Shown: piece by piece, positions 4,313-29,024 of the stretch | Layout: every line of letters starts with the position of its first letter | Position numbering within the stretch: the first letter of the stretch is position 1 | Assembly: GCA_019694155.1 (NCBI GenBank) | Contig: JAIBCN010000230.1 | Span: 3,536 to 67,535 of the forward strand | Reading direction: 5' to 3' | DNA: 64,000 nt | DNA from: Vicinamibacteria bacterium | GTDB lineage: Bacteria > Acidobacteriota > Vicinamibacteria > Fen-336 > JAGNNV01 | Made by a program: the position numbers and the translations under genes | The notes under the pieces: model-generated | The model's input: only the letters and a program-made list of their open reading frames with translations | Databases searched by the model: none | What the model was told of the DNA's origin: nothing

Positions 4313-4389
4313 GAGGGCTCCTTCTGAAAATCGCGCCGGGGTCTTTCGGGAGGGAGTGTAGCCGCTCCGCCCTCCCATAAGATCGCCGC

Positions 4390-5889: not shown

Positions 5890-5936
5890 CCCCCCGGGTC
5901 ATGCCCCCGCGCGGGGGATATCCCTATAATCCGCGC

Positions 5937-6443: not shown

Positions 6444-6468
6444 CCCCGCAGGGCGCGAGGCGCTCCGG

Positions 6469-7077: not shown

Positions 7078-7254
7078 GGGCCCCGGGGCGCTGTCCTGCT
7101 CTCGCAGGGTAGGTGCTGCTCACGCGCCTCGGCGAAGAAGGTCCCATCGAGAACGTCGCATGCAGCGGAGCCTCCGGCTGTCGACTTCGGGATCGTCCTC
7201 GCGGCCTCGCCCCAGGGAGTCATCGCGTCAAACGTACTTCTGGTCCGAGCCCGT

Positions 7255-7291
7255 TGATCGTGTGTGCTATCGTTGCACACGTCTGGGATCA
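7255..7291. promoter_or_regulatory. nested palindromic operator-like element upstream of the giant surface-protein gene
   Basis: TGATC-GTGTGTGC-tatcgtt-GCACACG-tctgg-GATCA. Outer 5-bp and inner 6-7-bp inverted repeats sit about 110 nt upstream of ATG 7402 in a lower-GC intergenic region. Confidence 0.3.
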
Positions 7292-7401
7292 GGTGGTGAA
7301 CGGTGGATCCAACGAATTCCGGGGCTGCTTCCCCCAAAGCACGTGCGGGTCACACGAGGGGTCAGTTTCCAGAAGCCGAAGTACTGTGAAGCGGAGGGTG
7401 T

Positions 7402-13800: not shown

Positions 13801-16800
13801 ATGCTGAAACGAACGAGAGTTCTCTCTGCCTTGGTCCTAGCCAGCGCGCTGTCGTTGGCTCCGGCAGACGAGGTAGCCGCGCAAATCCAGGTGGACTGTA
13901 CGGTTGCGCCAATGTTCACGCCCAGCCCGAACTATTGCCTTGGTGTTCAATACGTGTTCCCACCGAACGCCTGTGGGTGCTCCAATCGGCTCTTCGCCAC
14001 GTCGTGCGGTGGGGGTGCGATTACGGGGACAACGCAGGGCGGCGTGGCCGGGTGTCTCCTTTCTTTGGCTTGCAACATCGTTGAAACGGAGACGCCCTGC
14101 AACGGCGTCCTTGAGCCCACGCGTCCTCCGAAGACGCCGAAGGTGCCCTGTCTGGATTGCGGTGAGCCCGTCAACGTGACGACGGGGACGATGTACTTCA
14201 CCCACCGCGACGCCACCATCGGACGCCTCTCGTTCACGCGTACCTTCAGCACGCAGCGATTGTCGGCAAATCGCTATGGGATGTTTGGGCCCGGCTGGAA
14301 CACCGACTTCGAAAAGCGGCTGAGGAGTCTGGGAACCGGCGTTCTCGAGTACCGCGACGCCGATGGCGAGCCCACGTATTTTCAGGATCGAGACCTCGAT
14401 GGGAACTTCGAACAGTATGTTCCTTTCGGAAAGGACTCTTGGATTCTGGACACCGGTGTGGGCTACCAGCTGGTGCGCCGCGCGGGCGGGCACGAAGACT
14501 ACTCGACCACCGGCGTGCTCCTTGCGGAGACGGACGCAGCGGGAACCACGACGACGTACGCCCGTGACGGCAGCGCCCGGCTGACTTCGGTGACCAGAGA
14601 GGGCCGATCGTTCACCCTCACCTATTCGGGCGCCAACCTCAAGCCCGCCACCCTTCAGGGACCGGGCGGCGAGACGCTTGCGACCTATACCTACGAAACG
14701 GCGTCGGGCCGACTTGCCGCGGTTGACTATCCGGAGAGCGCGGGCTATCGGTACACCTACACCTCGGACGGCAAGGTGAGCTTCGTTGACGACGCCGACG
14801 GACGGCCCAGTGAGGCTCACGAGTACGACGCGCAGGGGCGTGCCACCACCTCGGAGATCGGCGACGGCCGGCAGAAGCTCACCTTCTCATATGACACAGT
14901 GAACAAGAAGACGACCGTCACCGACGCGCTCGGGCGACAAACGATCTACGAGTTCCAACTCGTGAAGCACGCGCAGGTATTGAAGAAGCTCATAGGGCCA
15001 TGCGCCGGCGCATGCGGACCGGCGGATGAGACGCGCGAGTGGACGTATGACGCCAGCACCGGGACACTGACGACGATGAAGGACCAGGCGGGAAAGATCT
15101 GGAGCTACACCTATGATCCGGTGACCCTGGACATGCTGACGGAGACCGATCCCCTGGCGCAGGTCACGACCTATTCCTATGACGCGCAAGGGCGCATGCT
15201 CACGCGAACTGGGCCGGACGGAGCGGTCACGACCTACGTTCAGAGCGACGCTGGGCCGACCAGCATCACCCAGAAAGTGGCGGCTTCACCGCTGGTCACC
15301 CGAACGACGGCGATTGCGTACTACGCCACGGCGGATGCCAAAAACGGAAAGGTCCACACGATCCAGGATCCCCGGGGGAAGGTGACCACCATGGACTACG
15401 ACGCCACCAAGGGAGACCTCCTGTCGGTCACGGATCCGCTCGGCCACGCGACCACATTCGGCTACGACGAGTCGCCGAGCCCCGCTGGGAGGGGCTTGCG
15501 GACGAGTGTGACCGATGCCCTCGGCCATGTCACCAAGACGGTGTACGAAGGCCGCAACCGGGTGAAGAAAGTAGTCAATCACGACAACACGTTCACCGAG
15601 TTCGGATATGACGCGGCCGGACGCAGGTCGACGGTGACGGATCCCATGGGTCGGGTGACCCGATACATCTACGATCGATACGGGCGTCTCGATACGGTGG
15701 TGGATCCGATGAATCAGACCACGCGTTATTCATATGACCTGATGGGGAATCTGCTCACGCTCACGGATGCGAAGAGCCAGACGACGACGTTCGAGTATGA
15801 CAGCCACGACCGGGTGAAGAAGACAATCTACCCAGGCGGGGCGTATGAGACGTTCACGTACGACTCGCGGGGGAGGCTTGAGACGATGGTCGACCGGAAG
15901 AACGTGACCACGACCTACGCCTACGACGACCTCGGGAGGCTCTTGGGGAAGACGTTCTCGAACGACCCATCGAATACGCCGCCGTTCAGCTACACCTACG
16001 ATGCGGCGGGAAGGATGCTCACGGCCGCGAACGGGACGGATACCCTCACGTGGACCTACAACCTGGCGGGGGAGTTGCTGAGCGAGCAGAGCGTGAAGAA
16101 CGCCAGCACGGTCGCCTACACCTACGACGACGGCGGCAACCGGCTGTCGGTGAGCCTGGACGGGACGCTCTTCGTCACGTACGCCTACGACGACGCGTCG
16201 AGGCTCACGACGATCACCCGCGGATCGAACGTGTTCGGCTTCGCCTACGACAACGCAAACCGAAGAACCAGCATGAGTTATCCAAACGGAGTCGATACGA
16301 CGTACACGTACGACACGCTCAATCGCCTCACGAACCTCGCGGCGACGAAGACGAGCACCGGAACGCCGATCACGAACTTCGGCTACCAGTACGACGCCGC
16401 GGGCAACCGGACGCAGAAGTCCACCCTCGACTACACGGAGGACTATGGGTACGACCCCCTCTACCGCCTGACCCGCGCGGACCGCACGAACCCAGGCGCC
16501 ACCCCGCCGAATCAGTGGACGTGGAGCTACGACGCGGTGGGCAACCGGACGAGCGCCCAGAAGGACAACGAGGCGACCACGTCCACCCACAACGAGAAGA
16601 ACCAGCTGCTACAGACGAGCGGAGGGGGGAAGATGCTCTGGCGCGGGGTCCTGGACGAGCCCGGGACCGCGACGTTCAACGCGGCCTCTGCGTCGATCAA
16701 CGGTCAGCCCGCGAGGATGCTTGCGGGGAACGTGTTCGAAGCGACGCTGGACCTGCCCGCGGGAGCGAACACGGTGACGATTCAAGCGCAGGACGGGAGC

Positions 16801-17919
16801 GGGAATGTGTCGAGCAAGAGCTACTCGGTGAACGTGCTCGGCGTGCCCGCGACCTACACCTACGACGCGAACGGCAACCTCGCGACGAAGACGGAAGGCG
16901 CGGACGCGTGGGCCTATCAGTGGAACGCTCTGAATCAGCTGACCGCCGTCTCGAAGAACGGCGTGATGGTCGCGTCCTACGGATATGACCCCGACGGGCG
17001 GCGTGTTGAGAAGACCGGTCCCGGACGGCTTCTCGCATGGGTCTACGATGGCGAGGATGTCCTGCGCGAGACCTCGACGTCTAGCGGCGTCAATATCTAC
17101 CAATGGCATGTGCACGGCCACGGTATAGACGAACCGCTCGCGACGGAGACGCTCAACGGAGTGTCTTACAGACACGGTGATGCCATCAACGCGGACCGAC
17201 GTCTAACCGATGCAAGCGGCAATGTCCTCGGCGGAGTGTCTACGGACCCCTGGGGCAACGGGGACTCGTCCTCTATGGGACCTTATGGCTTCGGAGGGAG
17301 AGAATGGGATCCTGAGGCACAGATGCATTTCTTCAGAGCTCGGTGGTACGACCCAAAGATCGGGCGATTTATCTCAGAAGACCCAATTGGATCGAGGGGC
17401 GGCTCTAACCTATTCTCCTACGTCGATTCGTCACCCCCGAACTTCGTTGATTCGCTCGGCCTATTCAAGATGAGCGGCTTTCCGCGGGACGGAGTTGCGG
17501 TATCAAAAGTAATCGACGCGATGGCGGCCGTTCGCAGGAGACTGACTGAACAGCCCTGTTGTACGGCCGACGCGCCTGACATCCTGAACTACATGGAGAA
17601 CGTCGACGTCGACTTCAAGCCCGACCTAAACATCAAGCGACAGAAGAAAGGGCAGAAACTGGCCTGTGCAACTGCTCAAGACACGAATTTCTTCTTCTTC
17701 AAGGTCCGAAAGATCCACTTCGCCCCCGAATCGTTCGGCCCAGAATGCGCGGCGCTCTCTCTGGAATGCATGCTCGTGCATGAGTACACCCATTTCGTGA
17801 CGGGCTATTCCGATACTGACCCTCGATATCACGGCCGTGAGTACAAGAATCAATTCACGTGTTTCGGCTGCGGCGACGGCACGGTCCCGCCGGGCGAGGG
17901 ACCGCGGGGGAAAGAATGA
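13801..17919 (+). CDS. RHS/YD-repeat polymorphic toxin (Sec signal, no PAAR) with HExxH metallopeptidase-like C-terminal domain
   Basis: Signal peptide followed by a Cys-rich region and many YD repeats (TYTYDANGNL, YAYDDLGRL). The RHS core ends in RARWYDP..GRFISEDPIG..DSLGL. After the DPxGL boundary comes a ~150-aa lower-GC tip containing LVHEYTHF (HExxH). Confidence 0.85.
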   Translation: MLKRTRVLSALVLASALSLAPADEVAAQIQVDCTVAPMFTPSPNYCLGVQYVFPPNACGCSNRLFATSCGGGAITGTTQGGVAGCLLSLACNIVETETPCNGVLEPTRPPKTPKVPCLDCGEPVNVTTGTMYFTHRDATIGRLSFTRTFSTQRLSANRYGMFGPGWNTDFEKRLRSLGTGVLEYRDADGEPTYFQDRDLDGNFEQYVPFGKDSWILDTGVGYQLVRRAGGHEDYSTTGVLLAETDAAGTTTTYARDGSARLTSVTREGRSFTLTYSGANLKPATLQGPGGETLATYTYETASGRLAAVDYPESAGYRYTYTSDGKVSFVDDADGRPSEAHEYDAQGRATTSEIGDGRQKLTFSYDTVNKKTTVTDALGRQTIYEFQLVKHAQVLKKLIGPCAGACGPADETREWTYDASTGTLTTMKDQAGKIWSYTYDPVTLDMLTETDPLAQVTTYSYDAQGRMLTRTGPDGAVTTYVQSDAGPTSITQKVAASPLVTRTTAIAYYATADAKNGKVHTIQDPRGKVTTMDYDATKGDLLSVTDPLGHATTFGYDESPSPAGRGLRTSVTDALGHVTKTVYEGRNRVKKVVNHDNTFTEFGYDAAGRRSTVTDPMGRVTRYIYDRYGRLDTVVDPMNQTTRYSYDLMGNLLTLTDAKSQTTTFEYDSHDRVKKTIYPGGAYETFTYDSRGRLETMVDRKNVTTTYAYDDLGRLLGKTFSNDPSNTPPFSYTYDAAGRMLTAANGTDTLTWTYNLAGELLSEQSVKNASTVAYTYDDGGNRLSVSLDGTLFVTYAYDDASRLTTITRGSNVFGFAYDNANRRTSMSYPNGVDTTYTYDTLNRLTNLAATKTSTGTPITNFGYQYDAAGNRTQKSTLDYTEDYGYDPLYRLTRADRTNPGATPPNQWTWSYDAVGNRTSAQKDNEATTSTHNEKNQLLQTSGGGKMLWRGVLDEPGTATFNAASASINGQPARMLAGNVFEATLDLPAGANTVTIQAQDGSGNVSSKSYSVNVLGVPATYTYDANGNLATKTEGADAWAYQWNALNQLTAVSKNGVMVASYGYDPDGRRVEKTGPGRLLAWVYDGEDVLRETSTSSGVNIYQWHVHGHGIDEPLATETLNGVSYRHGDAINADRRLTDASGNVLGGVSTDPWGNGDSSSMGPYGFGGREWDPEAQMHFFRARWYDPKIGRFISEDPIGSRGGSNLFSYVDSSPPNFVDSLGLFKMSGFPRDGVAVSKVIDAMAAVRRRLTEQPCCTADAPDILNYMENVDVDFKPDLNIKRQKKGQKLACATAQDTNFFFFKVRKIHFAPESFGPECAALSLECMLVHEYTHFVTGYSDTDPRYHGREYKNQFTCFGCGDGTVPPGEGPRGKE
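16448..16935 (+). repeat. direct repeat (copy 1) shared with orphan rhs cassette at 22451..22935
   Basis: Nucleotide alignment is near-identical across about 480 nt (GGGTACGACCCCCTCTACCGCCTGACCCGCGCGGACCG... through ...GGAAGGCGCGGACGCGTGGG), with a short diverged patch around the two-thirds point. Confidence 0.8.
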
Positions 17920-18353
17920 ACTTTTCAGTGAGATGTCTCGCAATCGCTTTGCTTTTCCTGCCCGCGCCTTCGTCGGCGTTCACCTGCATGCCCATTCGGC
18001 TCCTAGTCGAGGTACCCTCCCCTGAAGCGGGCTGGGCTTTGGACTTCGTCGCGAAGCCCGACCGCAAGACCCTAAAGGTCGCCCGCGAAGATGCGACTTC
18101 CATGACGTACGCGGTCTTCTTCGACACCCTTCGTGTGCGACCAGGCAAGGCGCAGGACTGCTCATGGGAGCCTTCGTCTCTTGTCGTTCGAATTCGTCAC
18201 GAGGATGGGACGGTGCGGGAGGATCAGATTCCATTCCCTCAGGGCTTTGTCCGAATTGAGGGAACCGCCCGGAGCTTCCGAGCGACGCGGCGCGCCTCTC
18301 TCGCTGAAAAACCGCCCGGCCTCAGTAAGGGCCCAGAAACCCCTCGCCGTTGA
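17916..18353 (+). CDS. putative cognate immunity protein for the RHS HExxH toxin (secreted)
   Basis: ATGA overlap with the rhs stop (ATG 17916, TGA 17917-19). Signal peptide [21 protein letters not shown]. 145 aa with no recognisable domain. Confidence 0.5.
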
Positions 18354-18414
18354 AGTGAATCAGATGGGTCGGGGATTCGGCCACCCAAACCTCGGTCTCC
18401 CAGGCGATATCGGT

Positions 18415-18490
18415 CTTCGCGCATCCGGGCGTCCGTGGTCACGGCCCCTCGCGCCTGGAGGCCCGGGGCGGACTAGCGGGGCTACGGCCG
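18415..18490 (+). other. conserved intergenic element, copy 1 (paralogous copy at 20885..20960)
   Basis: About 70 nt, roughly 80-85% identical to copy 2: GCAkCCGGGCGTCCGTGGTC.CG..CC.TCGCGCCTGGAGGC.CGGGGCGG. The CCGGGCG / CGCCUGG potential stem is conserved. Lies 30 nt upstream of gene A. Confidence 0.3.
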
Positions 18491-18520
18491 TAGGAGGGCG
18501 AAAGGGATAGCCATGAGAGG

Positions 18521-19249
18521 GTGCGAACGCAGATGCTCCAACGGCGTCTGGTCTCGATCGAAATGAGCCGATCGAAGCGCAGAGCACGGACCATCCAGCG
18601 AGATCAGGACATCGTGGATCTGCTCCAGCGAAGTGCCGGCGGCGCGGCATCTCTGAGCGATAGAGTCCACTACGACAGAGAGATCCAGCGCCTGGGAGCA
18701 GAGCTTGCCACAGCGAATGAGGCGTTCCAGTCTGACCTCAAGGAAGAGTACCAGCTGCGCTTGCTCGTGGTCGAGGAAGAGGGAAACCTGCTGCTGGACA
18801 TCCGCGCCCTTGAAGACGAGAACTCCCGTCGGGCCGGGCGTCCCACGCACCTTGAGCAGGCACGAGATGCCCTGCGACGACTACCCGAGGTGCCTGTGGA
18901 GCTCATGCACGCCGTCCCTTTTTGGACCGAGACGGACCTCGGATCTCTTCGGCCTCTGCCATCGCCTCACGCCCTGAATCAATATGAAAGATCCGTCGGT
19001 CGGGCCATTGAACGCTTCGGGCTGATGTCGAGTTGCGTGGAAGACTTCATTGAAGCGACCAGACTCAGGGAGTCCTTGGGGCACGTACCGCCAGGGACGG
19101 CTGACAGGGCCAAGGTTGATTTCGCCACCAATCAGGCGCAGATTCGCGTTGGACTGGACCAGATGGCGTTGCTGCCTCCCAGAATGCGAGCGGACCGGGC
19201 AGCCAATCTCGCGAAGCGCGCAGCCCTCGTCGCAGCATTGAAGCTCTGA
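18521..19249 (+). CDS. hypothetical protein (gene A; upstream partner of HEPN-like protein)
   Basis: 242 aa and protein-like, with GC lower than the flanks. Its stop overlaps the start of the next gene (TGATG). Confidence 0.45.
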   Translation: MRTQMLQRRLVSIEMSRSKRRARTIQRDQDIVDLLQRSAGGAASLSDRVHYDREIQRLGAELATANEAFQSDLKEEYQLRLLVVEEEGNLLLDIRALEDENSRRAGRPTHLEQARDALRRLPEVPVELMHAVPFWTETDLGSLRPLPSPHALNQYERSVGRAIERFGLMSSCVEDFIEATRLRESLGHVPPGTADRAKVDFATNQAQIRVGLDQMALLPPRMRADRAANLAKRAALVAALKL

Positions 19250-19914
19250 TGGTGGTCCATCTGCGTCGCCGCGGCCACAGACTCGAAGGGCTGGTCAACC
19301 GGTTCTGTTGGCATATCGAGAAGACCCAGAAGTACGTGACTGTCGTCATGCCTGCGATTAAGCAGCAAGATGATCCGGGTGTCGAGCAGTACCTATTCCA
19401 GTCTCTGGCCTTGATGCTTCACTCCTACATGGAGGACTTTTTCAAGGGTGTCATCAGAACAGCGGCGCCAAATCGCCCGATGGAATTGCGTGAGCATATG
19501 AGCACGTACTATTCCGAGGACATCAAGGGATCTGGAACTCTTCACATTCTTGAGCTCGCCCGGATGGCCGCGAAGCGCGAGGTGTCGTTCGAAAGGAAGG
19601 CCGAACGACTGAAGCGGGTCTTTCGTGTGCTTTTCGACGCTGATCCGTTTTGCGACGCGGAAGCCGAGTCCGACTGCCTCGACCTAGTCGTGGTTCGAAA
19701 CACCATTACGCACGACGGGGCGTGGCCCGATGGAAGAGTCCACCAGAGCCTCTCCCGGAAAGACATCGTCGTCGAAACTACCCTCGTGAACGGGGCGAGC
19801 TTCTACACACTCCAGATTCCGCCGCAGTTCTTTGCGAACGTGCTGGCAGGCCTTGGCAGAAGCGTCCTCGATTTGGACCGGCAGCTCCGAGAACACCCGG
19901 TCTATCGAATATGA
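19249..19914 (+). CDS. HEPN-like domain protein (gene B; RNxxxHxG motif) - candidate RNase toxin / abortive-infection effector
   Basis: 221 aa. LDLVVVRNTITHDGAW matches the HEPN R-[NHQ]-x3-H-x-G signature. GC is markedly lower than the locus average. Translationally coupled to gene A. Confidence 0.4.
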   Translation: MVVHLRRRGHRLEGLVNRFCWHIEKTQKYVTVVMPAIKQQDDPGVEQYLFQSLALMLHSYMEDFFKGVIRTAAPNRPMELREHMSTYYSEDIKGSGTLHILELARMAAKREVSFERKAERLKRVFRVLFDADPFCDAEAESDCLDLVVVRNTITHDGAWPDGRVHQSLSRKDIVVETTLVNGASFYTLQIPPQFFANVLAGLGRSVLDLDRQLREHPVYRI

Positions 19915-19968
19915 CCTTGAAATCCCCGCAGCTGTCACAACAGAAGGGACCCCAGCCCAAGGAGAGGC

Positions 19969-20667
19969 GTGATGAGCCCAGATGCACCTCTGAATAGTCG
20001 CGACGTTGTCCTCCTGCCGTACCTGCGCCTTGTTGGCAGGCTCTCCGTGGGTCCTTGGGAAGTGATTCCGCGGCCCGAGCTGACGCGGGCTGACACCACG
20101 ACCCAGCAGGTGTTCGAGGTGGTGCCCAAGTATCTCGACCTCTATGCCATCCCGAAGCATCAACCAAGAGAGAAGTGGGGTTGCCTTGTGAAGAAGAAGG
20201 CCGTTCGCTTTGGCGACTTCGTGGAGCGGCACGAGCTGGTGCCAGTACACCATGCGATTCTGGTTGGTGTGCTCGCCAGCAACCCAGAAGCGAACGCGAG
20301 GAACCCCGGTCGCTCAATGTCGACGTCAGAGAGCTGCATGATGTTCGGCCACCCGATCAGCGAGGAAGGTCGAGTCTCGGTCGAAAACGGGGCGATGTTC
20401 CACCAGGTTGTCGTTGCCGGGCTCAGGCTGGGCGACGATGACGGCTACGTCAGCCACCCCACGTCGCTCTGCGCTCCTTGGGACGGCAACCAGGTTGACG
20501 AAGCTCTTGCAGCCGCGACGCATACTGCTTTGACGCTGGGCACGGAAGGCGCCCGGCGCCTGTCGACCGCGATTGAATGGCTCCAAACGGTCTGGATGAA
20601 TACCGAGGCTGTAAGTTGGGACGTGCGCGTCATGGCACTGAAGGCAGCCTGGGTGAGAGCCACGTGA
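19969..20667 (+). CDS. hypothetical protein (gene C)
   Basis: 232 aa with coding-like codon bias and lower GC than the flanks. No recognisable domain. Confidence 0.4.
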   Translation: MMSPDAPLNSRDVVLLPYLRLVGRLSVGPWEVIPRPELTRADTTTQQVFEVVPKYLDLYAIPKHQPREKWGCLVKKKAVRFGDFVERHELVPVHHAILVGVLASNPEANARNPGRSMSTSESCMMFGHPISEEGRVSVENGAMFHQVVVAGLRLGDDDGYVSHPTSLCAPWDGNQVDEALAAATHTALTLGTEGARRLSTAIEWLQTVWMNTEAVSWDVRVMALKAAWVRAT

Positions 20668-20884
20668 TGATCGCTCAAAGGCGGTTGTTGGAAGTCATTC
20701 GGAAGCTGGTCTAGACGGGCGCGATGATCGGAACGTCCGCCACCGCGACCTGGGCCAGCAGGGCAAGCTGTGCCTGCACCCGTTCTCTGGAGATTGCCCC
20801 GTGTTGAGTAGCGGGTGGGTCGGTGAGCGAGTGGTCGCACACGCGTGGTACGGGGGCGCGCCGTCGTTTGTGGCCTTGCACATG

Positions 20885-20960
20885 CGGGCTGTCGAGCCTC
20901 GCGCAGCCGGGCGTCCGTGGTCGCGATCCATCGCGCCTGGAGGCTCGGGGCGGCTCGGCG
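20885..20960 (+). other. conserved intergenic element, copy 2 (see 18415..18490)
   Basis: Aligned to copy 1. Located 220 nt downstream of gene C and 220 nt upstream of gene D. Confidence 0.3.
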
Positions 20961-21176
20961 GGGCTGTGACTGACGGCGTGCGGCTGAGTTGCCTTTCCGA
21001 GGACGCGAGTGGCCTGCTCGGGATGCTGGACTTCACTACGCGCCGCGTCAAGGCTGCTCCGCTGCGCTCCGCACTTTTTTGCTTCGCAAAAAAGCCTTCG
21101 GGCCTGGACACGGCCCTACGTGAAGTCGTGATGAGAGGGCGCAGGCCACTTTCGGCCTGCGGAAAGGCAACCTCTC

Positions 21177-21716
21177 ATGTACACGTCAACCACACAGCCC
21201 CGCAACGCAGGCCCCGAGCCAACGCCGCGGCTTTCGGGTTCTCCCTCGTTCGGCCTTCGCGTCCGCGTGGCACTCGATACCACGCAGCAGTACCTGTTCG
21301 GCAACGATGGTCCGTCGGTCCTCACTCGTCTGGCCGAGGAACTCTGCATTCAGATGGCACGCATCGTCGTCTGCGACTTTCGCATTCACTCTCGGCTGAA
21401 CCGCACGGTTCCGGCAGTTCTGCGGAACGTCCGTCTGAGCTTCTGGTCCTGCGCTCGGCGGGCGGCACTCGATACCTCGGCAGCTCTTGCGGCGGGCGCC
21501 AAGCGTCGCGTGGTCCAGTCGGATCTGGCTATCCAGGCGGCGAATCTCGCTCTGCGCATCGCGGATCTCTGCGAGAAGGCGGAGCAGTCGGTTCGTTCCG
21601 AGAAGCAGATCGTGGAGAACTACGATCGGGCTCGGCGTTCGGAGCTTTCGGCGATGCATCGCGATCGACGGGAGCAGGAAGCTCGGCGTCGTGCCGAAGC
21701 CGAGGAGTCGCTCTAA
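21177..21716 (+). CDS. hypothetical protein (gene D), translationally coupled to Avd-like gene
   Basis: 179 aa. The frame-0 translation is protein-like, whereas the overlapping long frame (ORF 20801..22231) is R/S/G-rich junk upstream of 21716. Stop overlaps the next ATG (TAATG). Confidence 0.4.
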   Translation: MYTSTTQPRNAGPEPTPRLSGSPSFGLRVRVALDTTQQYLFGNDGPSVLTRLAEELCIQMARIVVCDFRIHSRLNRTVPAVLRNVRLSFWSCARRAALDTSAALAAGAKRRVVQSDLAIQAANLALRIADLCEKAEQSVRSEKQIVENYDRARRSELSAMHRDRREQEARRRAEAEESL

Positions 21717-22231
21717 TGAGCGCTGAACTCTCACTTCAGCAGGCCGGGGCTTCCGCCCCGGCCGTTTCCGCTTCGCAGTCGGCCGCTGGGCCTGGTGCCG
21801 AGCTTGCAGCAGTCCTCGCCGGTTCGGCCGCGGCGGAGTCCGCCGCTCGCGAGGACTCGATCCTCCTCGACGCTGAGAAGCTCGAGGTCTACGCGTTGGC
21901 CTTGGAGCTTCACGCATTCGCCGCATCGAAGGTCCCCACGCTGAGCCGTGTCCTCAAGGACCAGCTTGAGCGTGCCAGCCTCAGCGTGGTCTTGAACATC
22001 GCAGAGGGCGGGGGCCGTCGAAGCCGCAAGGACAAGTCGCGGCACTACACGTACGCGCGAGGCAGCGCCACGGAGGTTGCTGCCTGCTTCGACGTGCTCA
22101 AGATCCGGAAGCTCGCTCCGGCGTCCGAGTGCGCTCGTGGCCGAACCCTCGCGCTGCGCGTGGTCCAGATGCTCACGAAGCTCTGCGCATCACTTCAGCC
22201 GAAGTCCACCGAAGCGCAGGAGGCGGCTTGA
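21716..22231 (+). CDS. four-helix-bundle protein (23S rRNA intervening-sequence / Avd-like family)
   Basis: C-terminal 120 aa (LEVYALALELHAFA..LKDQLERASLSVVLNIAEGGGRRSRKDKSRHYTYARGSATEVAACFDVLKIRKL) matches the four-helix-bundle, DGR-Avd-like family. The N-terminal Ala/Ser-rich extension leaves the start uncertain. Confidence 0.55.
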   Translation: MSAELSLQQAGASAPAVSASQSAAGPGAELAAVLAGSAAAESAAREDSILLDAEKLEVYALALELHAFAASKVPTLSRVLKDQLERASLSVVLNIAEGGGRRSRKDKSRHYTYARGSATEVAACFDVLKIRKLAPASECARGRTLALRVVQMLTKLCASLQPKSTEAQEAA

Positions 22232-22431
22232 GCCTCACGCAGTCGTGTTTCAACGCTCGTCAGGCTAAGGCAGGACTGCGTTCGTCTCTCAAGAAGGTGG
22301 CGGTCGGCCAGCCCTTTTCGTGGGCCGAACGCGTTTGTCGTCAATCCGGCCTTCGGCCGGAACGGAGACGGACGGGACACGGGGCACGTTGCACGGCCGA
22401 GGTGGTGCGGCTGGTGACCTCGCCTTCGGCT

Positions 22432-23868
22432 TCGTCACCCAGCCACACCCTCGGGTACGACCCCCTCTACCGCCTGACCCGCGCGGACCGCACGAACCCA
22501 GGCGCCACCCCGCCGAATCAGTGGACGTGGAGCTACGACGCGGTGGGCAACCGGACGAGCGCCCAGAAGGACAACGAGGCGACCACGTCCACCCACAACG
22601 AGAAGAACCAGCTGCTACAGACGAGCGGAGGGGGGAAGATGCTCTGGCGCGGAACGTTGAGCGAGCCCGGGACGGCGACGTTTAGCGCAGCCTCGGCGTC
22701 GATCAACGGCCAGCCCGCGAGGATGCTTGCGGGGAACGTGTTCGAAGCGACGCTGGATCTGCCCGCGGGAGCGAACACGGTGACGATTCAAGCGCAGGAC
22801 GGGAGCGGGAATGTGTCGAGCAAGAGCTACACGGTGAACGTGCTCGGCTCTCCCGCGACCTACACCTACGACGCGAACGGCAACCTCGCGACGAAGACGG
22901 AAGGCGCGGACGCGTGGGTCTACACCTGGAACGCGCTGAATCAGCTGATTGCGGTAACGAAGAACGGCGTGACGCAGGCGACGTATGCCTACGACCCTGC
23001 CGGAAGGCGCGTTCAGAGATCGGCGAGCGTGACCACGACTTGGACCTACGACGACGAAGACGTCATTCGCCAGGCTGCTGGTCCCGTGGTATCGCTTGTT
23101 CTTCACGGGCCCGGCGTCGACGAGACGCTTGCAACTGAGGCACAGGGGATTACGACGTTCCTGCAAGTGGACGGCCTCGGATCCATTGTTCGTCATACGT
23201 CAACGTCTGGCGCCGTCGCGCAATCCGTTGGGTACGATGCTTGGGGCGTTGCCACTAGCACGGCCCCAGACACGTATGGTTTCACGGGAAGAGAGTGGGA
23301 CGCCGATGTGGCTCTCTATTACCTCCGCGCACGGTGGTACGACCCGAGGAGCGGCGGTTTCCTTGGGCCGGACCCGTCGATGACCCCTGGCCTTCCCGGA
23401 CACTACCTTTATGTGGGTGCCAACCCAACGGGATTCAGGGATCCGTCGGGACTGAAGCGCGAAGCGACGTGGATCGACCCGCCGGGCATCAAGGACTTCT
23501 CAGCTACGTATCAAGGGCCGATATATCCGGGGGAGTATTGGTCCCTCTTCCCGCCACAGGTCGGACTATATGGCGAATGGTGGCTCTTCAAAGGGAATGT
23601 CTCAGGGACAGTGAAATGCACGGATACTGACAAGTGTGCTGGGGATCAAACGAAGATCAAGAGTGTCAAGCTTCCGATCTGGAAGACCATTGGCATCGGG
23701 GTTGGAATGACAATGTATCCGTACATTCACTACATGAAGCGAGGCAAGCACATCATTGACGCCTTCCAGGAGGCCTACGACGCCTACTACAATTACTGGG
23801 TCCAGATCGCGAAGAACATGCTTGAAGATCCGATGACGTGGTGTCGAGTCCTCGGGGGGTTCAACTGA
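22432..23868 (+). CDS. orphan rhs C-terminal cassette (5'-truncated RHS core + alternative lower-GC C-terminal toxin domain)
   Basis: Homology to the main rhs begins at LGYDPLYRLTRADRT. The RHS core ends RARWYDPRSGGFLGPDP..DPSGL and is followed by a ~135-aa tip at about 50% GC with no motif recognised. There is no N-terminal signal or repeats. The upstream in-frame part of ORF 22129.. is probably non-coding. Confidence 0.7.
   Translation, partial: SSPSHTLGYDPLYRLTRADRTNPGATPPNQWTWSYDAVGNRTSAQKDNEATTSTHNEKNQLLQTSGGGKMLWRGTLSEPGTATFSAASASINGQPARMLAGNVFEATLDLPAGANTVTIQAQDGSGNVSSKSYTVNVLGSPATYTYDANGNLATKTEGADAWVYTWNALNQLIAVTKNGVTQATYAYDPAGRRVQRSASVTTTWTYDDEDVIRQAAGPVVSLVLHGPGVDETLATEAQGITTFLQVDGLGSIVRHTSTSGAVAQSVGYDAWGVATSTAPDTYGFTGREWDADVALYYLRARWYDPRSGGFLGPDPSMTPGLPGHYLYVGANPTGFRDPSGLKREATWIDPPGIKDFSATYQGPIYPGEYWSLFPPQVGLYGEWWLFKGNVSGTVKCTDTDKCAGDQTKIKSVKLPIWKTIGIGVGMTMYPYIHYMKRGKHIIDAFQEAYDAYYNYWVQIAKNMLEDPMTWCRVLGGFN
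22451..22935 (+). repeat. direct repeat (copy 2) of rhs segment 16448..16935
   Basis: See copy 1. Identity decays gradually 3' of about 22935 while protein-level RHS-core similarity continues. Confidence 0.8.
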
Positions 23869-23869
23869 C

Positions 23870-24223
23870 ATGCGCGGGCAGGGACTAGTCAAGGTTGGAC
23901 TTGGAGTGGCCTTGCTCGTCGCGTTTGGCGTCGTAGGCACCCTGGCCGTTCTCGCGCTCGACGGTCACTTTGCCGTCGCTCGACCCGAGCTGGAATGCGA
24001 GATCGTCAGGCGGATTGCGGCGAGCAGCACACTGGATGGAACCCCCATTTCGTCAGTCTGGGAGATCAAGGTCGCGCAAGGGCGAGTGGAGAAGTTCACG
24101 TTTCAAGGGTCTCCACCCTTGCACGCTGGCGACCGCGTCAAGGTCCGCTACGTCGAGGCGAGGCTCTCCGGAGAGAAGGGCGTCACCTCCTATTACATCA
24201 TCCAAAGACACCCGGTGCCGTAG
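23870..24223 (+). CDS. putative immunity protein for orphan toxin (membrane-anchored)
   Basis: Starts 2 nt after the orphan stop. 117 aa with N-terminal TM helix VGLGVALLVAFGVVGTLAVLAL. Confidence 0.45.
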   Translation: MRGQGLVKVGLGVALLVAFGVVGTLAVLALDGHFAVARPELECEIVRRIAASSTLDGTPISSVWEIKVAQGRVEKFTFQGSPPLHAGDRVKVRYVEARLSGEKGVTSYYIIQRHPVP

Positions 24224-24508: not shown

Positions 24509-25735
24509 CTATGCGGGCTGGAGGTAGGGAAATCGACGCGCGACCCGATCGAGCCACGCGACGCGCATTGGCGGCGGTCCGTGATTGATGCCGGGTCTTG
24601 CGCGTGGCGGCTGGATGGCGGTCGCGGCCTTCGGTTGGACTCCGGCCAAACGCTCAGCCGGAGTGGCGCCATCGAGAGAGTAGATCGGTCGCTGGTAGGT
24701 GTAGTAGTTCAGGGCCGCGGCGAGCCGCTCTTCGAAGTCTGACAGCGTGAGCGGCTGCGCGAGGGGAAGGCCCATCAGCCAATCGAGAGTTCTCCAGAAG
24801 CGCTCGATGAGCCCGGTGATCGTGGTCCTGCCCGGGCTGCCGAGGCGTATCCGCGAACCCAGGCGCTTGGCTGCCATTCTGAAGGCGCCCTTGAACTCCG
24901 GTCCTCCGTCTATGGCGACGTACCGCGGCCTTCCCCAGGCTGCGGCTACGCGCTTCAGCAGCCTTGCTGCCGCGTCCGCGGTCGGAGGCGTCGCCGAGGC
25001 GTGGATGCCGAGTGGAGCCTGGGAGTAGGCGTCAAGGACCCCAGTGACCCAGAACTTCCGGAAGCCGAGGAAGCTCTTCACCTCGTGAGAGTCGAGGATG
25101 AAGACATGGCCAACGAACGTCGCCTTGAGGGGCATGCGGCTCGAGGAATCCGGAAGGTCGGGTGAGGCTTCCGTGGGTTCGCTCTTGAGGACGCTCTCCA
25201 CGTAGCTCTTCGAGACCTTCCATCCACCACGCGCGACGTGGGCCGCGATCTGATGAGCGCGTCCGAGGTGGAGGCGTTCCGCCAGGCGCACCAGCGCGCG
25301 GACGACATCGGCGTATCGGCGGATGGGCGGGTCGGGTTGGATGTCGGGGCCGACGGTTTGCCGCGCGGGATCGGCGGCGTCTTCCCACCGTGTGAAGGTG
25401 GTGGGAGTGACGACGAACTGAGCGGCGGCCTCCTCGATCGACCAGCCCATTGTCTGACGCAACTGGAGGGCCTTGAAGCGCGCAGGGCCGGAGTAATGGG
25501 GACGCTTCTTGGGAGCGATCTTCCGAAGCCGCGTCTGGAACGTCTCGACCATCTCGGTGAGGATTCCGTTCCGGGTTTCGAGTTCCTTGATGCGGGCAAG
25601 GGCCATCGTGAGCGCATCATCAGAGAGGCGGAGGCGCCGGAGTTGAGCGTCGAGGGCACAGCCCAGGATGCGAACGGCTCTCAAAGTCGCCTTGGACGCA
25701 ATCTTCTCGGCAGCCTCGTGAATGCGCAGGTTCAT
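24509..25735 (-). CDS. DDE transposase (integrase-core rve domain; IS481/IS3-superfamily-like)
   Basis: Start MNLRIHEAAEKIA. N-terminal HTH with coiled coil, and C-terminal rve/rve_3-like YTYQRPIYSLDGATPAERL. Confidence 0.7.
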   Translation of the reverse strand: MNLRIHEAAEKIASKATLRAVRILGCALDAQLRRLRLSDDALTMALARIKELETRNGILTEMVETFQTRLRKIAPKKRPHYSGPARFKALQLRQTMGWSIEEAAAQFVVTPTTFTRWEDAADPARQTVGPDIQPDPPIRRYADVVRALVRLAERLHLGRAHQIAAHVARGGWKVSKSYVESVLKSEPTEASPDLPDSSSRMPLKATFVGHVFILDSHEVKSFLGFRKFWVTGVLDAYSQAPLGIHASATPPTADAAARLLKRVAAAWGRPRYVAIDGGPEFKGAFRMAAKRLGSRIRLGSPGRTTITGLIERFWRTLDWLMGLPLAQPLTLSDFEERLAAALNYYTYQRPIYSLDGATPAERLAGVQPKAATAIQPPRARPGINHGPPPMRVAWLDRVARRFPYLQPA

Positions 25736-26122
25736 GAGGCGAGCATGGCGGACCGAGCGTGCCTGGCCCTCAGGCGCGGTACCGCGGGGCGCGAGGACCC
25801 CGCGGGCGGAGGCCAAAGCACCGTTCCCGAACGGAGTGGGGCCCAAGGCTCCTCTGAGTCAAAGCGGGGCGGTCAGCCCCGCTCCATTCATTGAAGACGA
25901 CATTGGGCCCCACGTATGTGAGGGAACGCCCGGGTGCTTTGGCCGCAGCATGACCACGCGGCCGCGGTGTTCACGGATGGCCCGCGGTCGGCGCGGTGGC
26001 TTTCGCGGGATTGCTTCGTCGCACTACCGACGGAATGGCTCCTCGCAATGACGGGGGGTGCCTCTCCCCGAAGCGCGGAGGAGGCTGGGCGGTGCGGTTC
26101 GCAATGACGTGGGCGGGGCGTT

Positions 26123-26900
26123 TCACCTCACCGAGGAGCGTCGCTCGCGAAAGTGCTCGCGCCATTCGGCGGAGCGGTAGCGGATGACCTTGAGCAGCGC
26201 GAGATCGACTCGCTTCGCGTCGCCGAGGGCTTCGGCGTCGTAGAGGTCGAAGCCGTCGGGCTGGAAGGAGAGGGTCAGGTACTGGCCGTATTGAACCGCG
26301 TTCTGCATGTCCTCGAAGCTCGGGACGTCGCCGCCGGTCCAGTTGCCGTTCGCGTCGTGGGGGGCGTGGGTGTGCCAGCCTCCCACGTAGCGGCCATGCC
26401 AGTCGGTGCTGGTGATGAGGGCCAGTTGTTCCTCGGGGCCGAGGGAGTAGGTGGGGGCGGCGTTTTGGGCCACGGTGAGAAGGGCGCGCCTCACTTCCTC
26501 TGCGCTGCCGGGTGAGCCGAGGCGGAAGCGCGCCACTGCGACTTTGATGAGGCCGTGGGTGTCGACCTTGGCGACTTCGGCCGCGCGGGTTTCGCACAGC
26601 GAGGCGATGGCTTTGGGGTCTCCGGCGACTTTGACGAGGTCCTGGACCGTCGACCACCGCGGGTCGCGGGCCTCGACTAGGCGCAGCTCCTTGTCGATGG
26701 TCGCTTCGCCTCCGGTTTCCGGGGTGAGCCACTTGGGACCGATCCGCACGCCGCGCTCGATCATGGCCTCGAAGAGCGCGCGGATCCGATCGACGGAGGC
26801 GGGTGAGAGAGCGGCCGCGCGGAGCTGGCGTGGGTGATGGGGTTGTTCTTCGGGGCGGCGAGGCCATGCCACTGGTCGAGGCGCGAGAGGGTTCGCGCCA
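26123..26900 (-). pseudogene. fragment (C-terminal ~260 aa) paralogous to secreted protein gene 29076..30146, fused in frame to a truncated transposase
   Basis: About 88% nt identity to 29121..29880. Homology breaks, with a frameshift, near 26860-26900. Confidence 0.5.
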
Positions 26901-27039
26901 TGGTGGCTGAGACTTTGATCGCACCGGCGGCCTGGCGGGATTGCTTCGTCGGGCGGTCTACCGAACCCTCCTCGCAATGATGGAGGAGTGTCTCGTTGAT
27001 TCCTTGCCCCGACCGACATCGCGACCGATGGCATGGGCG

Positions 27040-27787
27040 GGCTCGCCGAGGCGTGGATGCCGAGTGGAGCCTGCGAGTAGGCGTCGAAAACGCCAGTGAT
27101 GAAGAACTTCCGGAAGCCGAGGAAGTTCTTCACCTCGTGAGAGTCGAGGATGAAGACATGGCCAACGAACCTGGCCTTGAGGGGCATGCGGCTCGATGAA
27201 TCGGGCAGGTCGGGCGAGGCCTCCTCGGGCTCGCTTCTGAGCACGCTCTCGACGTAGCTCTTGGAGATCTTCCAGCCGCCACGCGCGACGTGAGCGGCGA
27301 TCTGGTGGGCGCGTCTCATGCCGAGGCGCTCGGCAAGGCGCACCAAATTGCGAACAACGTCGGCATACCGCCGGATGGGCGGGTCGGTTTGGATGTCGGG
27401 TCCCACGGTTTGTCGAGCGGGGTCGGCGGCGTCCTCCCACCGCGTGAAGGTGGTGGGAGTGACGAGGAATTGAGCGGCGGCTTCCTCGATCGACCAGCCC
27501 ATAGTCTGGCGCAGCTGGAGAGCCCTGAACCGCGCGGGGCCGGAGTAGTGGGGACGCTTCTTGGGAGCGATCTTCCGAAGCCGCGTCTGGAACGTCTCGA
27601 CCATCTCGGTGAGGATTCCGTTCCGGGCTTCGAGTTCCTTGATTCGGGCGACGGCCTGCGTGAGCGCGTCATCGGAGATGCGGAGGCGACGGAGTTGTGA
27701 ATCGAGGACCCGGGCGAGGATCCGAACGGCTCCGAGTGTCGCTCTTGTGGCGATGGCCTCGGCCGCATCGTGCAGGCGCAGGTTCAT
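27040..27787 (-). pseudogene. truncated transposase paralog (N-terminal ~250 aa only; catalytic rve core missing)
   Basis: Start MNLRLHDAAEAIA. About 80-85% nt identity to 24985..25735 and ends abruptly at about 27040. Part of chimeric ORF 26123..27931. Confidence 0.55.
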
Positions 27788-27878
27788 GAGGAGAGCACCC
27801 CCTTTTGCAGGTTCCCGAAGGGGATCGGCTCGCAAGGAAGACCGAGCGCATTTCGCCAAGGACGGAATGGCTCCGCCC

Positions 27879-29024
27879 TCAGAGATCCTCCGCGATCCTC
27901 GACGCCGCAAGCGCCGTGATGTCCTTCGCAAGCGGGAAGGTCTCTACTCCCGCGTGGATGATGTACGCATGGCGCAGCCCGAGCACGGAGATTGCCGATC
28001 GGAGGGACTTCGTGACTTGCGGCGCGCTCGTGCGCTTCGCCTCGAACCCGATGCGCCTCGATCCTCTGATCCAGAGCATGTCGAGCTCGGCGCCGCCATG
28101 AGTGGCCCAGAAGAACGTCTCCGAGGAGTCGGCCTCGACCCGGGCCGCCGCCTGCTGAAGCACGAATCCTTCCCACGAGGCGCCGAGGAGAGGGTGGCGC
28201 TCGAGGTCGCGGAGCGTCGGGATTCCCAGGAGGGCGTGAAGAAGGCCGGAGTCGCGGATGAGAACCTTCGGCGCTTTGACCTGGCGACGGTCGATGTTGA
28301 CGTGCCAGGGCTTGAGGGTGCGCACCACGAGCGCCTTTTCCAGGATCTCGAGGTAATGGCCCACCGTTCCCTCACTGACCGCGAGCGAGCGGGCCAGCTC
28401 GGCCGCGTTCCAGGTGCGCGCGTGGTAGTGGGCGAGCATGCTCCAGAAACGCGAGAGGCGCGGCGCTTCGATGCGGATGCCGAGCTGGGGGATGTCCCGC
28501 TCGATGAATGTGCGGATGAACGCCCGTCGCCATTCCAGGCTTCGCGCTTCGGAAGGCGCCGCGTAGCTTCGCGGAAAGCCGCCGCGGAGCCAGAGACGAT
28601 TGAGGTGCGGCGCGCCCACGTCGCGGAGACGCAGCCCTTCGAGGGTGTGGTAGGCGATGCGTCCGGCGAGGCTCTCCGACGACTGCCGGAGCAGCTCTGG
28701 CGATGCGCTCCCCAGGATGAGAAAGCGGGCGGGCAGGGGGTGGCGGTCGGCGAGGACGCGGAGGGTTTCGAAAAGGCCCGGGCGGCGCTGGATCTCGTCG
28801 AGGATCACAAGGCCGCGAAGGGGCTTGAGGGCAAGGCCCGGGTCCGAGAGCCGGGCGAGGTCGTCCGGATCCTCGAGGTCGAAGCTCTCCACCGAGCGGC
28901 TGGCCGCCGCGATCTGGCGGGCCAGGGTTGTCTTGCCCGATTGGCGCGGTCCCAGGAGAGCCACGACGGGGAAGTGCCCGAGAAGTCGGCGAACGGCAGA
29001 GATCTCGTCAAGCCGCGGAATCAC
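27879..29024 (-). CDS. AAA+ ATPase (DUF4143 family)
   Basis: Walker A LLGPRQSGKTTLARQ, Walker B ILDEIQR, and the C-terminal DUF4143-like region. Confidence 0.7.
   Translation of the reverse strand: MIPRLDEISAVRRLLGHFPVVALLGPRQSGKTTLARQIAAASRSVESFDLEDPDDLARLSDPGLALKPLRGLVILDEIQRRPGLFETLRVLADRHPLPARFLILGSASPELLRQSSESLAGRIAYHTLEGLRLRDVGAPHLNRLWLRGGFPRSYAAPSEARSLEWRRAFIRTFIERDIPQLGIRIEAPRLSRFWSMLAHYHARTWNAAELARSLAVSEGTVGHYLEILEKALVVRTLKPWHVNIDRRQVKAPKVLIRDSGLLHALLGIPTLRDLERHPLLGASWEGFVLQQAAARVEADSSETFFWATHGGAELDMLWIRGSRRIGFEAKRTSAPQVTKSLRSAISVLGLRHAYIIHAGVETFPLAKDITALAASRIAEDL

Follow-up and report, generated by a model that had tools for sequence, protein, structure and literature searches.

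We analysed a 64,000-nucleotide stretch of DNA (hereafter the window) from a Vicinamibacteria bacterium (contig JAIBCN010000230.1), in which two small genes, D and an Avd-like gene, lie directly upstream of a fragment of an RHS toxin gene. The two genes appear to open a translationally coupled operon whose third member is this fragment, called open reading frame (ORF) X. They belong to a conserved module of about 1.7 kb (20763-22455) that consists of an RNA leader, D and the Avd-like gene, a structured spacer and a terminal hairpin. This module, which we call the head, was seen in about 35 Vicinamibacteria-type loci; the related loci that were compared with the window carry labels of the form L0xx. 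In related soil bacteria, genes for other proteins, giant and secreted, are attached to it. A preliminary description of the window had correctly placed three ORFs here, genes C, D and the Avd-like gene (Table 1), and missed the conserved leader and the terminal hairpin. The lower GC content that it ascribed to the three genes is real but only slight (0.64-0.65, compared with about 0.67 for the window).

By hidden Markov model score and predicted fold, the Avd-like protein is a bona fide member of the PF05635/TIGR02436 (IVS protein) four-helix-bundle family, as had been proposed. Residues 59-160 exceed the cut-offs of both profiles, with 62.8 bits for PF05635 (33.8 required) and 65.5 bits for TIGR02436 (24 required). 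An AlphaFold2 (AF2) model of the family, made from database homologues, has four helices and a predicted local distance difference test score (pLDDT) of 71. In Foldseek it matches 2gsc with an E-value of 3e-4, a template modelling (TM) score of 0.80-0.82 and a root-mean-square deviation of 1.9 A, and 2rld with a TM score of 0.70-0.75. Its TM score to bAvd, the Avd protein of a diversity-generating retroelement (DGR), is 0.62-0.70 (4dwl and 8ub7/8ub8). The bundle core has an isoelectric point (pI) of 9.9, a basic loop (GRRSRKDKSRH) and the motifs NIAEG and ARGSxxE. We know of no established function of the PF05635/IVS family outside DGRs, and stand-alone genes of the family are very common in bacterial genomes. 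The Avd-like gene is therefore an ordinary family member by sequence, but it occurs in an undescribed and well-conserved architecture.

The bundle is preceded by an N-terminal extension of 55 residues that is present in all relatives, and there is no alternative in-frame start between 21716 and the Avd domain. Within the extension, codons 9-16 form a GC hairpin (z = -3.75) that is invariant in 13 loci and resembles a terminator. Class C introns insert after terminator-like motifs. In L022, a group II intron (221-2030, - strand; RVT_1 and GIIM domains) is inserted 9 nt past this hairpin, which marks the hairpin as terminator-like. The flanks of L020 are the same as those of L022, but its sequence ends about 190 nt past D, with the intron out of view.

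Gene D, previously described as unknown, indeed has no match in Pfam or NCBIfam, and a PDB sequence search returned only noise. Its homologues form 65 clusters (59-94% identity), with 33 representatives at 50% identity among 1.84 billion proteins; distant members of about 135 aa have no C-terminal helix. The AF2 model of D (pLDDT 82) has four helices (residues 27-109), followed by a 64-residue C-terminal helix, and the core (27-109) is basic, with a pI of 11.3. The best PDB folds are again 2gsc and 2rld (prob 0.98, TM 0.59-0.61, E 0.23). When the D family is compared with the linked Avd set using hhalign, the alignment covers all four helices (E 1e-4, probability 58%) and pairs NVRxGFW...ARRAALD in D with NIAEG...ARGSATE in Avd, while the basic loop is deleted in D. 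The predicted fold and the profile comparison suggest that D is a second, diverged, loop-deleted paralogue of the Avd/IVS fold, which is probable rather than proven. Both D and Avd are under purifying selection, because substitutions concentrate at third codon positions (101/72/291 by codon position in D and 16/13/185 in the Avd core). Indels in D are whole codons, and the GC frame plot agrees with the coding status of both genes.

The stop codon of D and the start codon of Avd overlap by 1 nt in TAATG (21714-21718). This coupling, which had been noticed earlier, recurs in all of the 23 distinct loci from which such counts were drawn. At the Avd stop, 20 of the 23 have NTGA (N = G, T or A). 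In the window, a TTG at 22228 overlaps the Avd stop codon TGA (22229-22231) and is the start of ORF X. The first 75 codons of X form a spacer that takes in the terminal hairpin; the rest is the C-terminal part of an RHS protein (PF05593 match) with a toxin tip. The frame from NTGA to the terminal hairpin has no stop codon in the window, compared with 1-2 stops in other frames, and the corresponding frame is also free of stops in L003, L006, L008, L009, L010 and L034. Longer versions of 0.8-1.5 kb (L036, L039, L042 and L083) have 0 stops in this frame and 5-15 in the others. In the copies joined to rpoC and acrB sequences, discussed below, the NTG frame is out of phase or full of stops.

Since the TTGA start is coupled to the Avd stop and the frame is open into the RHS sequence, the "orphan" RHS reads as the third, translationally coupled gene of the D-Avd operon. 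D and Avd had been thought merely to lie between two RHS modules; they are instead the conserved head of the orphan RHS, to which the TTGA overlap links them in frame. The definition of Rhs orphans as silent fragments does not fit ORF X, which has a start of its own. In a number of loci (L025, L036, L039, L083-L086, L080-L082, L017 and L015), a PIN-domain toxin gene and a small antitoxin gene lie antisense to the head, downstream of Avd and, wherever the terminal hairpin is seen, ahead of it. The sense frame across this pair is open in L036, L039 and L083, and contains 17 stops in L080-82. The idea that the open frame is a shadow of the antisense genes is argued against by the stop counts in several diverged loci, 0 in this frame as opposed to 10-15 in the others, although the caveat remains.

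Upstream of D, the RNA is predicted to fold into one long imperfect hairpin of about 290 nt. Its minimum free energy is -162.8 kcal/mol (z = -6.3), and 0 of 200 shuffled sequences were as stable. In the predicted fold, the hairpin buries the Shine-Dalgarno (SD) sequence of D, its AUG and its first 15 codons. P1 pairs TTGCCTTTCCG... with ...CGGAAAGGCAA, and the SD sequence is therefore inside this helix. The conservation of D's disordered N-terminus would be explained by codons 7-15, because these form an arm of P0. Among 22 sequences, 93% of the cells in P1-P3 and the apical hairpin are paired, as opposed to 34-50% when slid; for P0 the values are 90% and 23-50%. Compensatory changes in P1-P3 and the apical hairpin affect 7 pairs (27 cells), a level that 0 of 500 shuffles reach, and two of these pairs fall in P1, the SD-sequestering helix. 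An alternative local hairpin (21141-21160) competes with P1 and P2 and would free the SD sequence, as is typical of a switch. Three G-U pairs of P2 that never vary favour the + strand, i.e., RNA. No Rfam family reached its gathering score anywhere in the window; at relaxed thresholds there was no match at E <= 5 in 17800-22400, and there were only two noise matches (E 4-6) at 22150-22700.

An orphan copy of the leader's 5′ arm, the P0 5′ strand, occurs upstream of the operon that contains a 242-aa gene and a HEPN-like gene, with its repeat partner at 20892. This copy looks like the scar of another head. We dropped the possibility that the 91-nt repeat (18410/20892) is a shared promoter, given that its core is the 5′ arm of the outermost leader helix, which pairs with D codons 7-15. 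A scan for sigma-70 promoters and terminators gave 0 promoters.

The spacer downstream of Avd contains two hairpins, of which the UUCG-capped one has z = -2.95; when the window, L008 and L010 are compared, the loops differ but the stems are preserved. The substitution counts at the three codon positions, 46/62/53 in the spacer and 8/9/6 in the terminal hairpin, show no coding bias. Spacer and terminal hairpin thus appear to be translated but constrained as nucleic acid. The stem of the terminal hairpin covaries between subfamilies, with GCGGATGCC/GGCATCCGC in one and GGCTGGTGAC/GTCACCCAGCC in another (13 blocks aligned). We rejected two identities for this element. As the 3′ end of a group II intron it has no Rfam match and no domain V/VI features, and the intron of L022 and the putative one of L014 are separate insertions; as an integron attC site it has no core motifs and no IntI gene. 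Members of one subfamily (L006, L009, L011, L013, L034 and L002) share a REP-like hairpin, CCCCACCCCAGACCCCTCCC...GGGAGGGGCTCGTGTCACGTG, in the spacer that separates Avd from the block.

Table 1. Features of the D-Avd head, of the sequences joined to it and of the surrounding window
Feature	Position	Strand	Remarks
5′ extension of the conserved module	20763-20934	+	one subfamily only; contains the start of the 91-nt repeat
Structured leader	20935-21230	+	one long imperfect hairpin, ~290 nt
P0	20942-20966 with 21195-21220		3′ strand in D codons 7-15
P1	20989-21004 with 21155-21170		contains SD sequence GAAAGG, 21162-21167
P2	21006-21017 with 21141-21152		
P3	21028-21036 with 21120-21128		
Apical A/U hairpin	21074-21094		caps the leader rod
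Gene D	21177-21716	+	179 aa
Avd-like gene	21716-22231	+	171 aa
GC hairpin GGCCGGGGC-UUCC-GCCCCGGCC	21742-21763	+	Avd codons 9-16; encodes invariant AGASAPAVS
ORF X	22228-23868	+	546 aa; RHS C-terminal fragment
Spacer ("pre")	22232-22396	+	hairpins 22302-22330 and 22346-22360 (CCGGCC-UUCG-GGCCGG)
Terminal hairpin ("junction block")	22397-22454	+	58 nt; conserved ~70-nt stretch from ~22385
RHS core segment	22453-23361	+	homologous to main RHS 16447-17370
Small membrane ORF	23870-24223	+	117 aa; 2 nt past the X stop
RHS repeats past block	window, L002/3, L009, L010, L034		
Giant Big/LamG (Ig-like) proteins past block	L005, L006, L025/L083; L039, L042		nested points of the same domain in L005, L006, L025/L083; elsewhere in L039, L042
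rpoC (RNA polymerase beta′) fragments past block	L011 1412-1668 / L043 1682-1936; L038 1470-1592		two positions
acrB-like (RND-pump) C-terminus past block	L080 12764-13149		
Orphan copy of leader 5′ arm (P0 5′ strand)	18410-18500	+	91 nt, 77% identical; no partner arm
Gene C	19969-20667	+	510-nt gap before D
242-aa gene overlapping 221-aa HEPN-like gene	18521-19914	+	
Full-length main RHS toxin	13801-17919	+	small ORF next
Surface protein	7402-13782	+	2126 aa
rve/HTH_23 integrase gene	24509-25846	-	partial second copy 27020-27796 (-), 86% aa identity
Duplicated 317/356-aa gene	25971-26932 and 29076-29895		adjoins integrase
DUF4143 AAA gene	27879-29024		

The loci recovered through D come from 13 GTDB genomes, most of them Vicinamibacteria, and from JGI/ENA contigs; in every one the Avd-like gene comes directly after D, and the same order occurs in about 22 of the 28 loci found by a leader 20-mer. 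In all loci, DNA conservation starts about 215 nt before the 21141 hairpin, which is about 250 nt before the start of D. For one subfamily, about half of the loci, blastn and alignment place the start of homology about 330-390 nt before this hairpin. On the other side, conservation extends beyond Avd by 220-1550 nt, and by about 2.2 kb in L080-82, a decayed copy; in the window, the conserved unit begins about 410 nt ahead of D and ends 224 nt after Avd. There can be several heads per contig, and contigs often break at the head. The head is itself a mosaic, because the phylogenies of D and Avd disagree: the window is 89% identical to L002a in D and 49% in Avd, and 76% and 89% identical, respectively, to L010. 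The type of Avd co-varies with the type of spacer and terminal hairpin, whereas that of D does not.

Homology between loci ends exactly after CCCTCGG, and there are 14 junction types beyond this point. The frame of the downstream gene is in phase with the terminal hairpin in 13 of the 14 distinct types; the exception, L008, has its own ATG. The sequences past the junction include RHS repeats, giant Ig-like proteins and pieces of rpoC and acrB-like genes, and in L002, L009, L025, L034 and L039 a signal-peptide-like N-terminus of X lies just past the coupled start. The housekeeping-type fragments directly follow the terminal hairpin in phase, and the rpoC piece of L043 is decayed. A true insertion of the head into rpoC was rejected: L043 is a decayed remnant with unrelated genes next to it.

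An rve integrase gene on the opposite strand lies directly upstream of the head in L007, L019 and L020/22, and such a gene lies just downstream of the cassette in the window, L003, L008 and L010. At least 8 further loci have a homologue of the window's integrase beside the head, in every case encoded on the strand opposite to D and Avd. The leader 20-mer has no exact match in 2.9 million viral contigs, where matches to the core of the terminal hairpin come without the rest of it and are chance matches, and blastn of the whole head against 72,556 plasmids found nothing. In L080 (a 261-kb contig), a gene for an HSP70-like protein of 836 aa and an AAA ATPase gene, possibly a defence-type pair, lie upstream of the head (3843-7734, - strand). 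A full-text literature search that did not cover all journals gave no description of the module; for the PF05635/Avd-like family it gave only DGR papers and passing annotations. The D-Avd-leader head is thus apparently undescribed.

The RHS part of ORF X is related to the main RHS gene of the window. The two are 100% identical over the first 200 nt past the terminal hairpin (16447-16646 equals 22453-22652 exactly, starting at the boundary of the block), after which there is a cluster of mismatches. Identity is then 87-95% to about nt 500, followed by about 55% (unrelated). The 200-nt identical tract looks like recent gene conversion. At the protein level, the orphan RHS is 70% identical to residues 883-1190 of the main RHS, followed by a divergent tip. 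From its position, the 117-aa membrane ORF downstream of X, which has no Pfam match, is a candidate immunity gene.

Gene C had been grouped with D and Avd as one cargo unit of three. While the D-Avd pair is conserved in related loci, tblastn of gene C gave no match in any of them. Only 4 clusters of homologues exist, and one member is 100% identical (K1Y01_20210, Vicinamibacteria metagenome-assembled genome). Two informative homologues, P0067 and P0069, continue for about 110 aa beyond the end of gene C and carry the HEPN motif RNxIxHG about 60 residues past its stop. Gene C, which was earlier said to have no recognised domain, itself has no Rx4-6H motif of HEPN proteins. Because these homologues continue and carry the motif, gene C reads as the 3′-truncated relic of a HEPN-family gene of about 340 aa. 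The missing C-terminal part occurs nowhere else in the window, and gene C is cut off about 100 nt before the head. It starts 55 nt after the HEPN-like gene, and a Logan contig calls both as one gene string. Gene C is probably part of the upstream operon (18521-19914), not of the conserved module.

In that upstream operon, the 221-aa protein has an RNTITH (Rx4H) motif and a weak match to the RiboL-PSP HEPN family PF18735 (E 0.007, below cut-off), and the two overlapping genes are possibly a HEPN-based toxin-antitoxin or defence pair. The tip of the main RHS (17371-17919) contains an HExxH motif (LVHEYTHF) and has no Pfam match, suggesting a metallopeptidase-type toxin.

A locus with an Avd-like gene raises the question of a DGR, in which the avd gene adjoins the template repeat and the reverse transcriptase (RT) gene. 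As previously reported, there is no RT in the window: [YF]xDD occurs in no likely gene other than in a YD repeat of the main RHS, and tblastn with the Bordetella phage RT (bRT) gave only noise (E = 6.6). RT families are also absent from the precomputed Pfam gene tables of L002, L003 and L080-L086. In a search of the window and 46 related loci, the latter with 365 kb of sequence, bRT matches RTs only in L022, where the RT is the protein of the group II intron inserted into the module (RVT_1 with a GIIM maturase domain), and in L014, where a short RT-like fragment (13-309, bRT tblastn match only) lies upstream of the leader and may be a second intron. As for a template/variable repeat pair, the only long repeat in the window is the RHS core duplication, whose mismatches (G>A, C>T, T>C, C>G, A>G and T>G) are not adenine-specific. 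The Avd-like gene has no tblastn similarity to bAvd. The presence of an Avd-fold protein, the tetraloop-capped stems downstream of its gene, as in DGR spacer RNA, and the fact that the window covers only 64 kb of the genome speak for a standard or degenerate DGR with RT and template repeat elsewhere, which we nonetheless consider highly improbable. The D-Avd locus is not a DGR.

The DGR Avd is still the best functional analogy, which would be one of binding to stem-loop RNA. In the DGR ribonucleoprotein, the Avd pentamer binds an 11-bp UNCG-capped stem, and a tetraloop-capped stem of about 9 bp lies close to avd in 207 of 278 DGRs (10.1101/2023.10.23.563531). The D-Avd locus shares with bAvd the fold, the positive charge and nearby tetraloop-capped RNA stems; it differs in having no adjacent RT, no pair of template and variable repeats and no adenine mutagenesis signature, and in that the partner is a second Avd-fold protein.

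We tentatively propose, as a reading that falls somewhat short of an even chance, that D and Avd are basic four-helix-bundle regulators that act on RNA and head the coupled three-gene operon D -> Avd -> X. The mRNA of the operon would open with the leader hairpin, locking the SD sequence, AUG and first 15 codons of D, and further tetraloop-capped stem-loops stand at the start of Avd (UUCC), in the spacer (UUCG), at the constant/variable boundary (core of the terminal hairpin) and in the leader. D and Avd, possibly as a mixed oligomer, would bind stem-loops in their own transcript, and binding would gate translation of, or read-through into, X and the immunity gene. X is a polymorphic protein; the version in the window is a C-terminal RHS fragment that ends in a toxin tip, and the small putative immunity gene follows it. 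RNA binding is proposed because the DGR Avd binds a UNCG-capped stem next to its own gene.

The adjacency of D and Avd, their constant overlap, the frequent NTGA and the open frame to the terminal hairpin all favour this regulatory reading. So do purifying selection on D and Avd while spacer and terminal hairpin are unconstrained as protein, the basic cores of both proteins, and a leader that is supported by thermodynamics and compensatory changes and has a switch-like alternative hairpin. The fold of Avd is that of 2gsc, 2rld and bAvd, D matches the same family in fold and profile, and the Avd type, unlike that of D, tracks the spacer and block type. Orphan Rhs toxin/immunity pairs can be expressed internally (PMC7043789).

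Several points weigh against this reading. RNA binding by D and Avd and the regulatory outcome are steps that we infer by analogy. The link of D to the Avd family is modest (Foldseek E 0.23, hhalign probability 58%). P0 shows little covariation, and the hairpin in Avd codons 9-16 and P2 are invariant, hence without covariation signal. The terminal hairpin has the lower z value on the - strand (-5.0, compared with -3.4 for the + strand); because the - strand folds at least as well, this element could act as DNA. X in the window has no signal peptide of the kind found in other loci, so the window copy may be degenerate. In addition, the sharp end of homology, the decayed rpoC and acrB pieces, the truncated gene C and the frequent rve genes point to DNA rearrangement, of which a purely regulatory model leaves the signs unexplained.

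These signs are better explained if the head of about 1.7 kb is a recombination or mobility module, in which the terminal hairpin, possibly as folded single-stranded DNA, is the joining site for new coding bodies. The head would travel together with a captured gene fragment, and homologous (Campbell-type) recombination at this fragment would insert both into resident genes, displacing the old RHS tip downstream, with D and Avd as nucleic-acid-handling accessory factors, possibly alongside the rve integrase or an RT supplied in trans. This would account for the halt of homology at CCCTCGG with 14 different sequences beyond, including non-toxin rpoC at two positions and the acrB-like piece, and for the nested junctions in one giant-protein family (L005, L006 and L025). 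It also fits the multiple heads per contig or genome and the contig breaks at heads, the mosaicism of D and Avd, the break-off of gene C about 100 nt short of the head, the orphan half-leader, the perfect identity to the main RHS directly past the block, the recurrent opposite-strand rve integrase upstream or downstream of heads, and the greater stability of the block hairpin on the - strand. However, no recombinase is universally linked to the head, which has neither terminal inverted repeats nor target duplications; empty sites are absent, and the viral contigs (leader 20-mer) and plasmids (blastn) that were searched do not contain the head. The phase preference at the junctions and the open frame argue for selection on expression of the fusion, the non-toxin junctions are the decayed or uncoupled ones, and D and Avd are all-helical, have no catalytic motifs and are under strong purifying selection, with no sign of recombination enzymology. 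We therefore regard a recombination module as somewhat unlikely, although regulatory and DNA-level ideas are not mutually exclusive. A further idea, which we consider unlikely, is that the head is a new kind of nucleic-acid machine, independent of RT or using one in trans, that captures or swaps coding segments at a defined hairpin. The segments would be fused in frame to the head, which would serve as a portable unit for expression and secretion. If true, polymorphic toxins and adhesins would have a system for exchanging their cassettes, and the Avd family would have a role outside DGRs.

Two small helical proteins encoded directly upstream of, and co-translated with, a polymorphic toxin or adhesin gene could also be chaperones or targeting factors that bind the N-terminal part of X, like the small helical partners whose genes precede those of LXG toxins, or the Eag chaperones of Rhs effectors of type VI secretion systems. 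The signal-peptide-like N-termini of many X proteins (in the five loci named above) and the long C-terminal helix of D, which suits coiled-coil contacts, would agree with such a role. Yet the part of X that adjoins D and Avd is not conserved as protein, having no codon bias and differing between subfamilies, and no sequence or profile similarity to known chaperone families was found. High pI and membership in the Avd family fit nucleic-acid binding better, and the elaborate RNA leader would be left unexplained; we see chaperones as quite unlikely. The island is rich in HEPN-like genes, PIN-antitoxin pairs and DUF433/PIN-like pairs, and D and Avd have a tight two-gene architecture; they might be an independent selfish or defence module (toxin-antitoxin, abortive-infection or immunity pair) that accumulates in RHS islands. 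This view is very unlikely: profile searches of D, Avd and C with PADLOC and PHROGs gave no match better than noise at E <= 1, nor is there a Pfam match to toxin-antitoxin or defence families at this level; D and Avd are always continuous with leader, spacer, terminal hairpin and in-phase ORF, never alone. The pair is moreover conserved across cassettes with different toxins, and therefore is not a cognate immunity pair.

The head can also be set beside other known systems. Compared with the IVS family (2gsc and 2rld), the Avd-like protein is likewise small and basic, with NIAEG and ARGSxxE motifs and a TM score of 0.8, but it has the conserved 55-residue extension with the GC hairpin in codons 9-16, is always preceded by D and lies inside a conserved RNA-rich module. 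Locus-head regulator pairs and leader-RNA-dependent antitermination are known from Bacteroides UpxY/UpxZ, LoaP and lambda N-nut. As in the D-Avd head, two small genes and a long conserved 5′ leader stand in front of each of several surface or toxin loci that are variable and very long. Proteins like NusG or N are absent here, and the likeness is only architectural. In-frame recombination sites at constant/variable boundaries include phage Mu gix and shufflon sfx, and integrons have attC hairpins. Like these, the terminal hairpin is a short conserved structured sequence exactly where variable coding segments join in phase. Unlike these, it comes without an invertase, Rci or IntI gene; the window contains neither an inverted copy nor a partner site, the element occurs once per head, and attC core motifs are absent.

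The closest parallel to the RHS part is the orphan toxin-immunity cassettes of Rhs/CdiA systems, which arise by C-terminal displacement (Poole et al. 2011, PMC3150448). Here, too, a main rhs gene is followed by a 5′-truncated fragment that shares the core, has a different tip and precedes a small ORF, and there are signs of recent recombination, in this case the 200 nt at 100% identity. Classical orphans, however, have no dedicated upstream operon, whereas in the window a conserved spacer runs in frame into the fragment, which is translationally coupled to two conserved genes with a structured leader. Full-length giant Ig-like proteins are likewise encoded behind such a head.

The locus thus provides a concrete context for one clade of stand-alone Avd/IVS proteins, with a fixed partner, an RNA structure that is predicted to hide the ribosome-binding site and a fixed downstream client. 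The "orphan" RHS modules of this lineage should be re-read as what appears to be the third cistron of a conserved operon, not silent spare DNA. The exact constant/variable boundary at a hairpin, with joins in phase, is a lead on how polymorphic toxin and adhesin genes may be reassorted.

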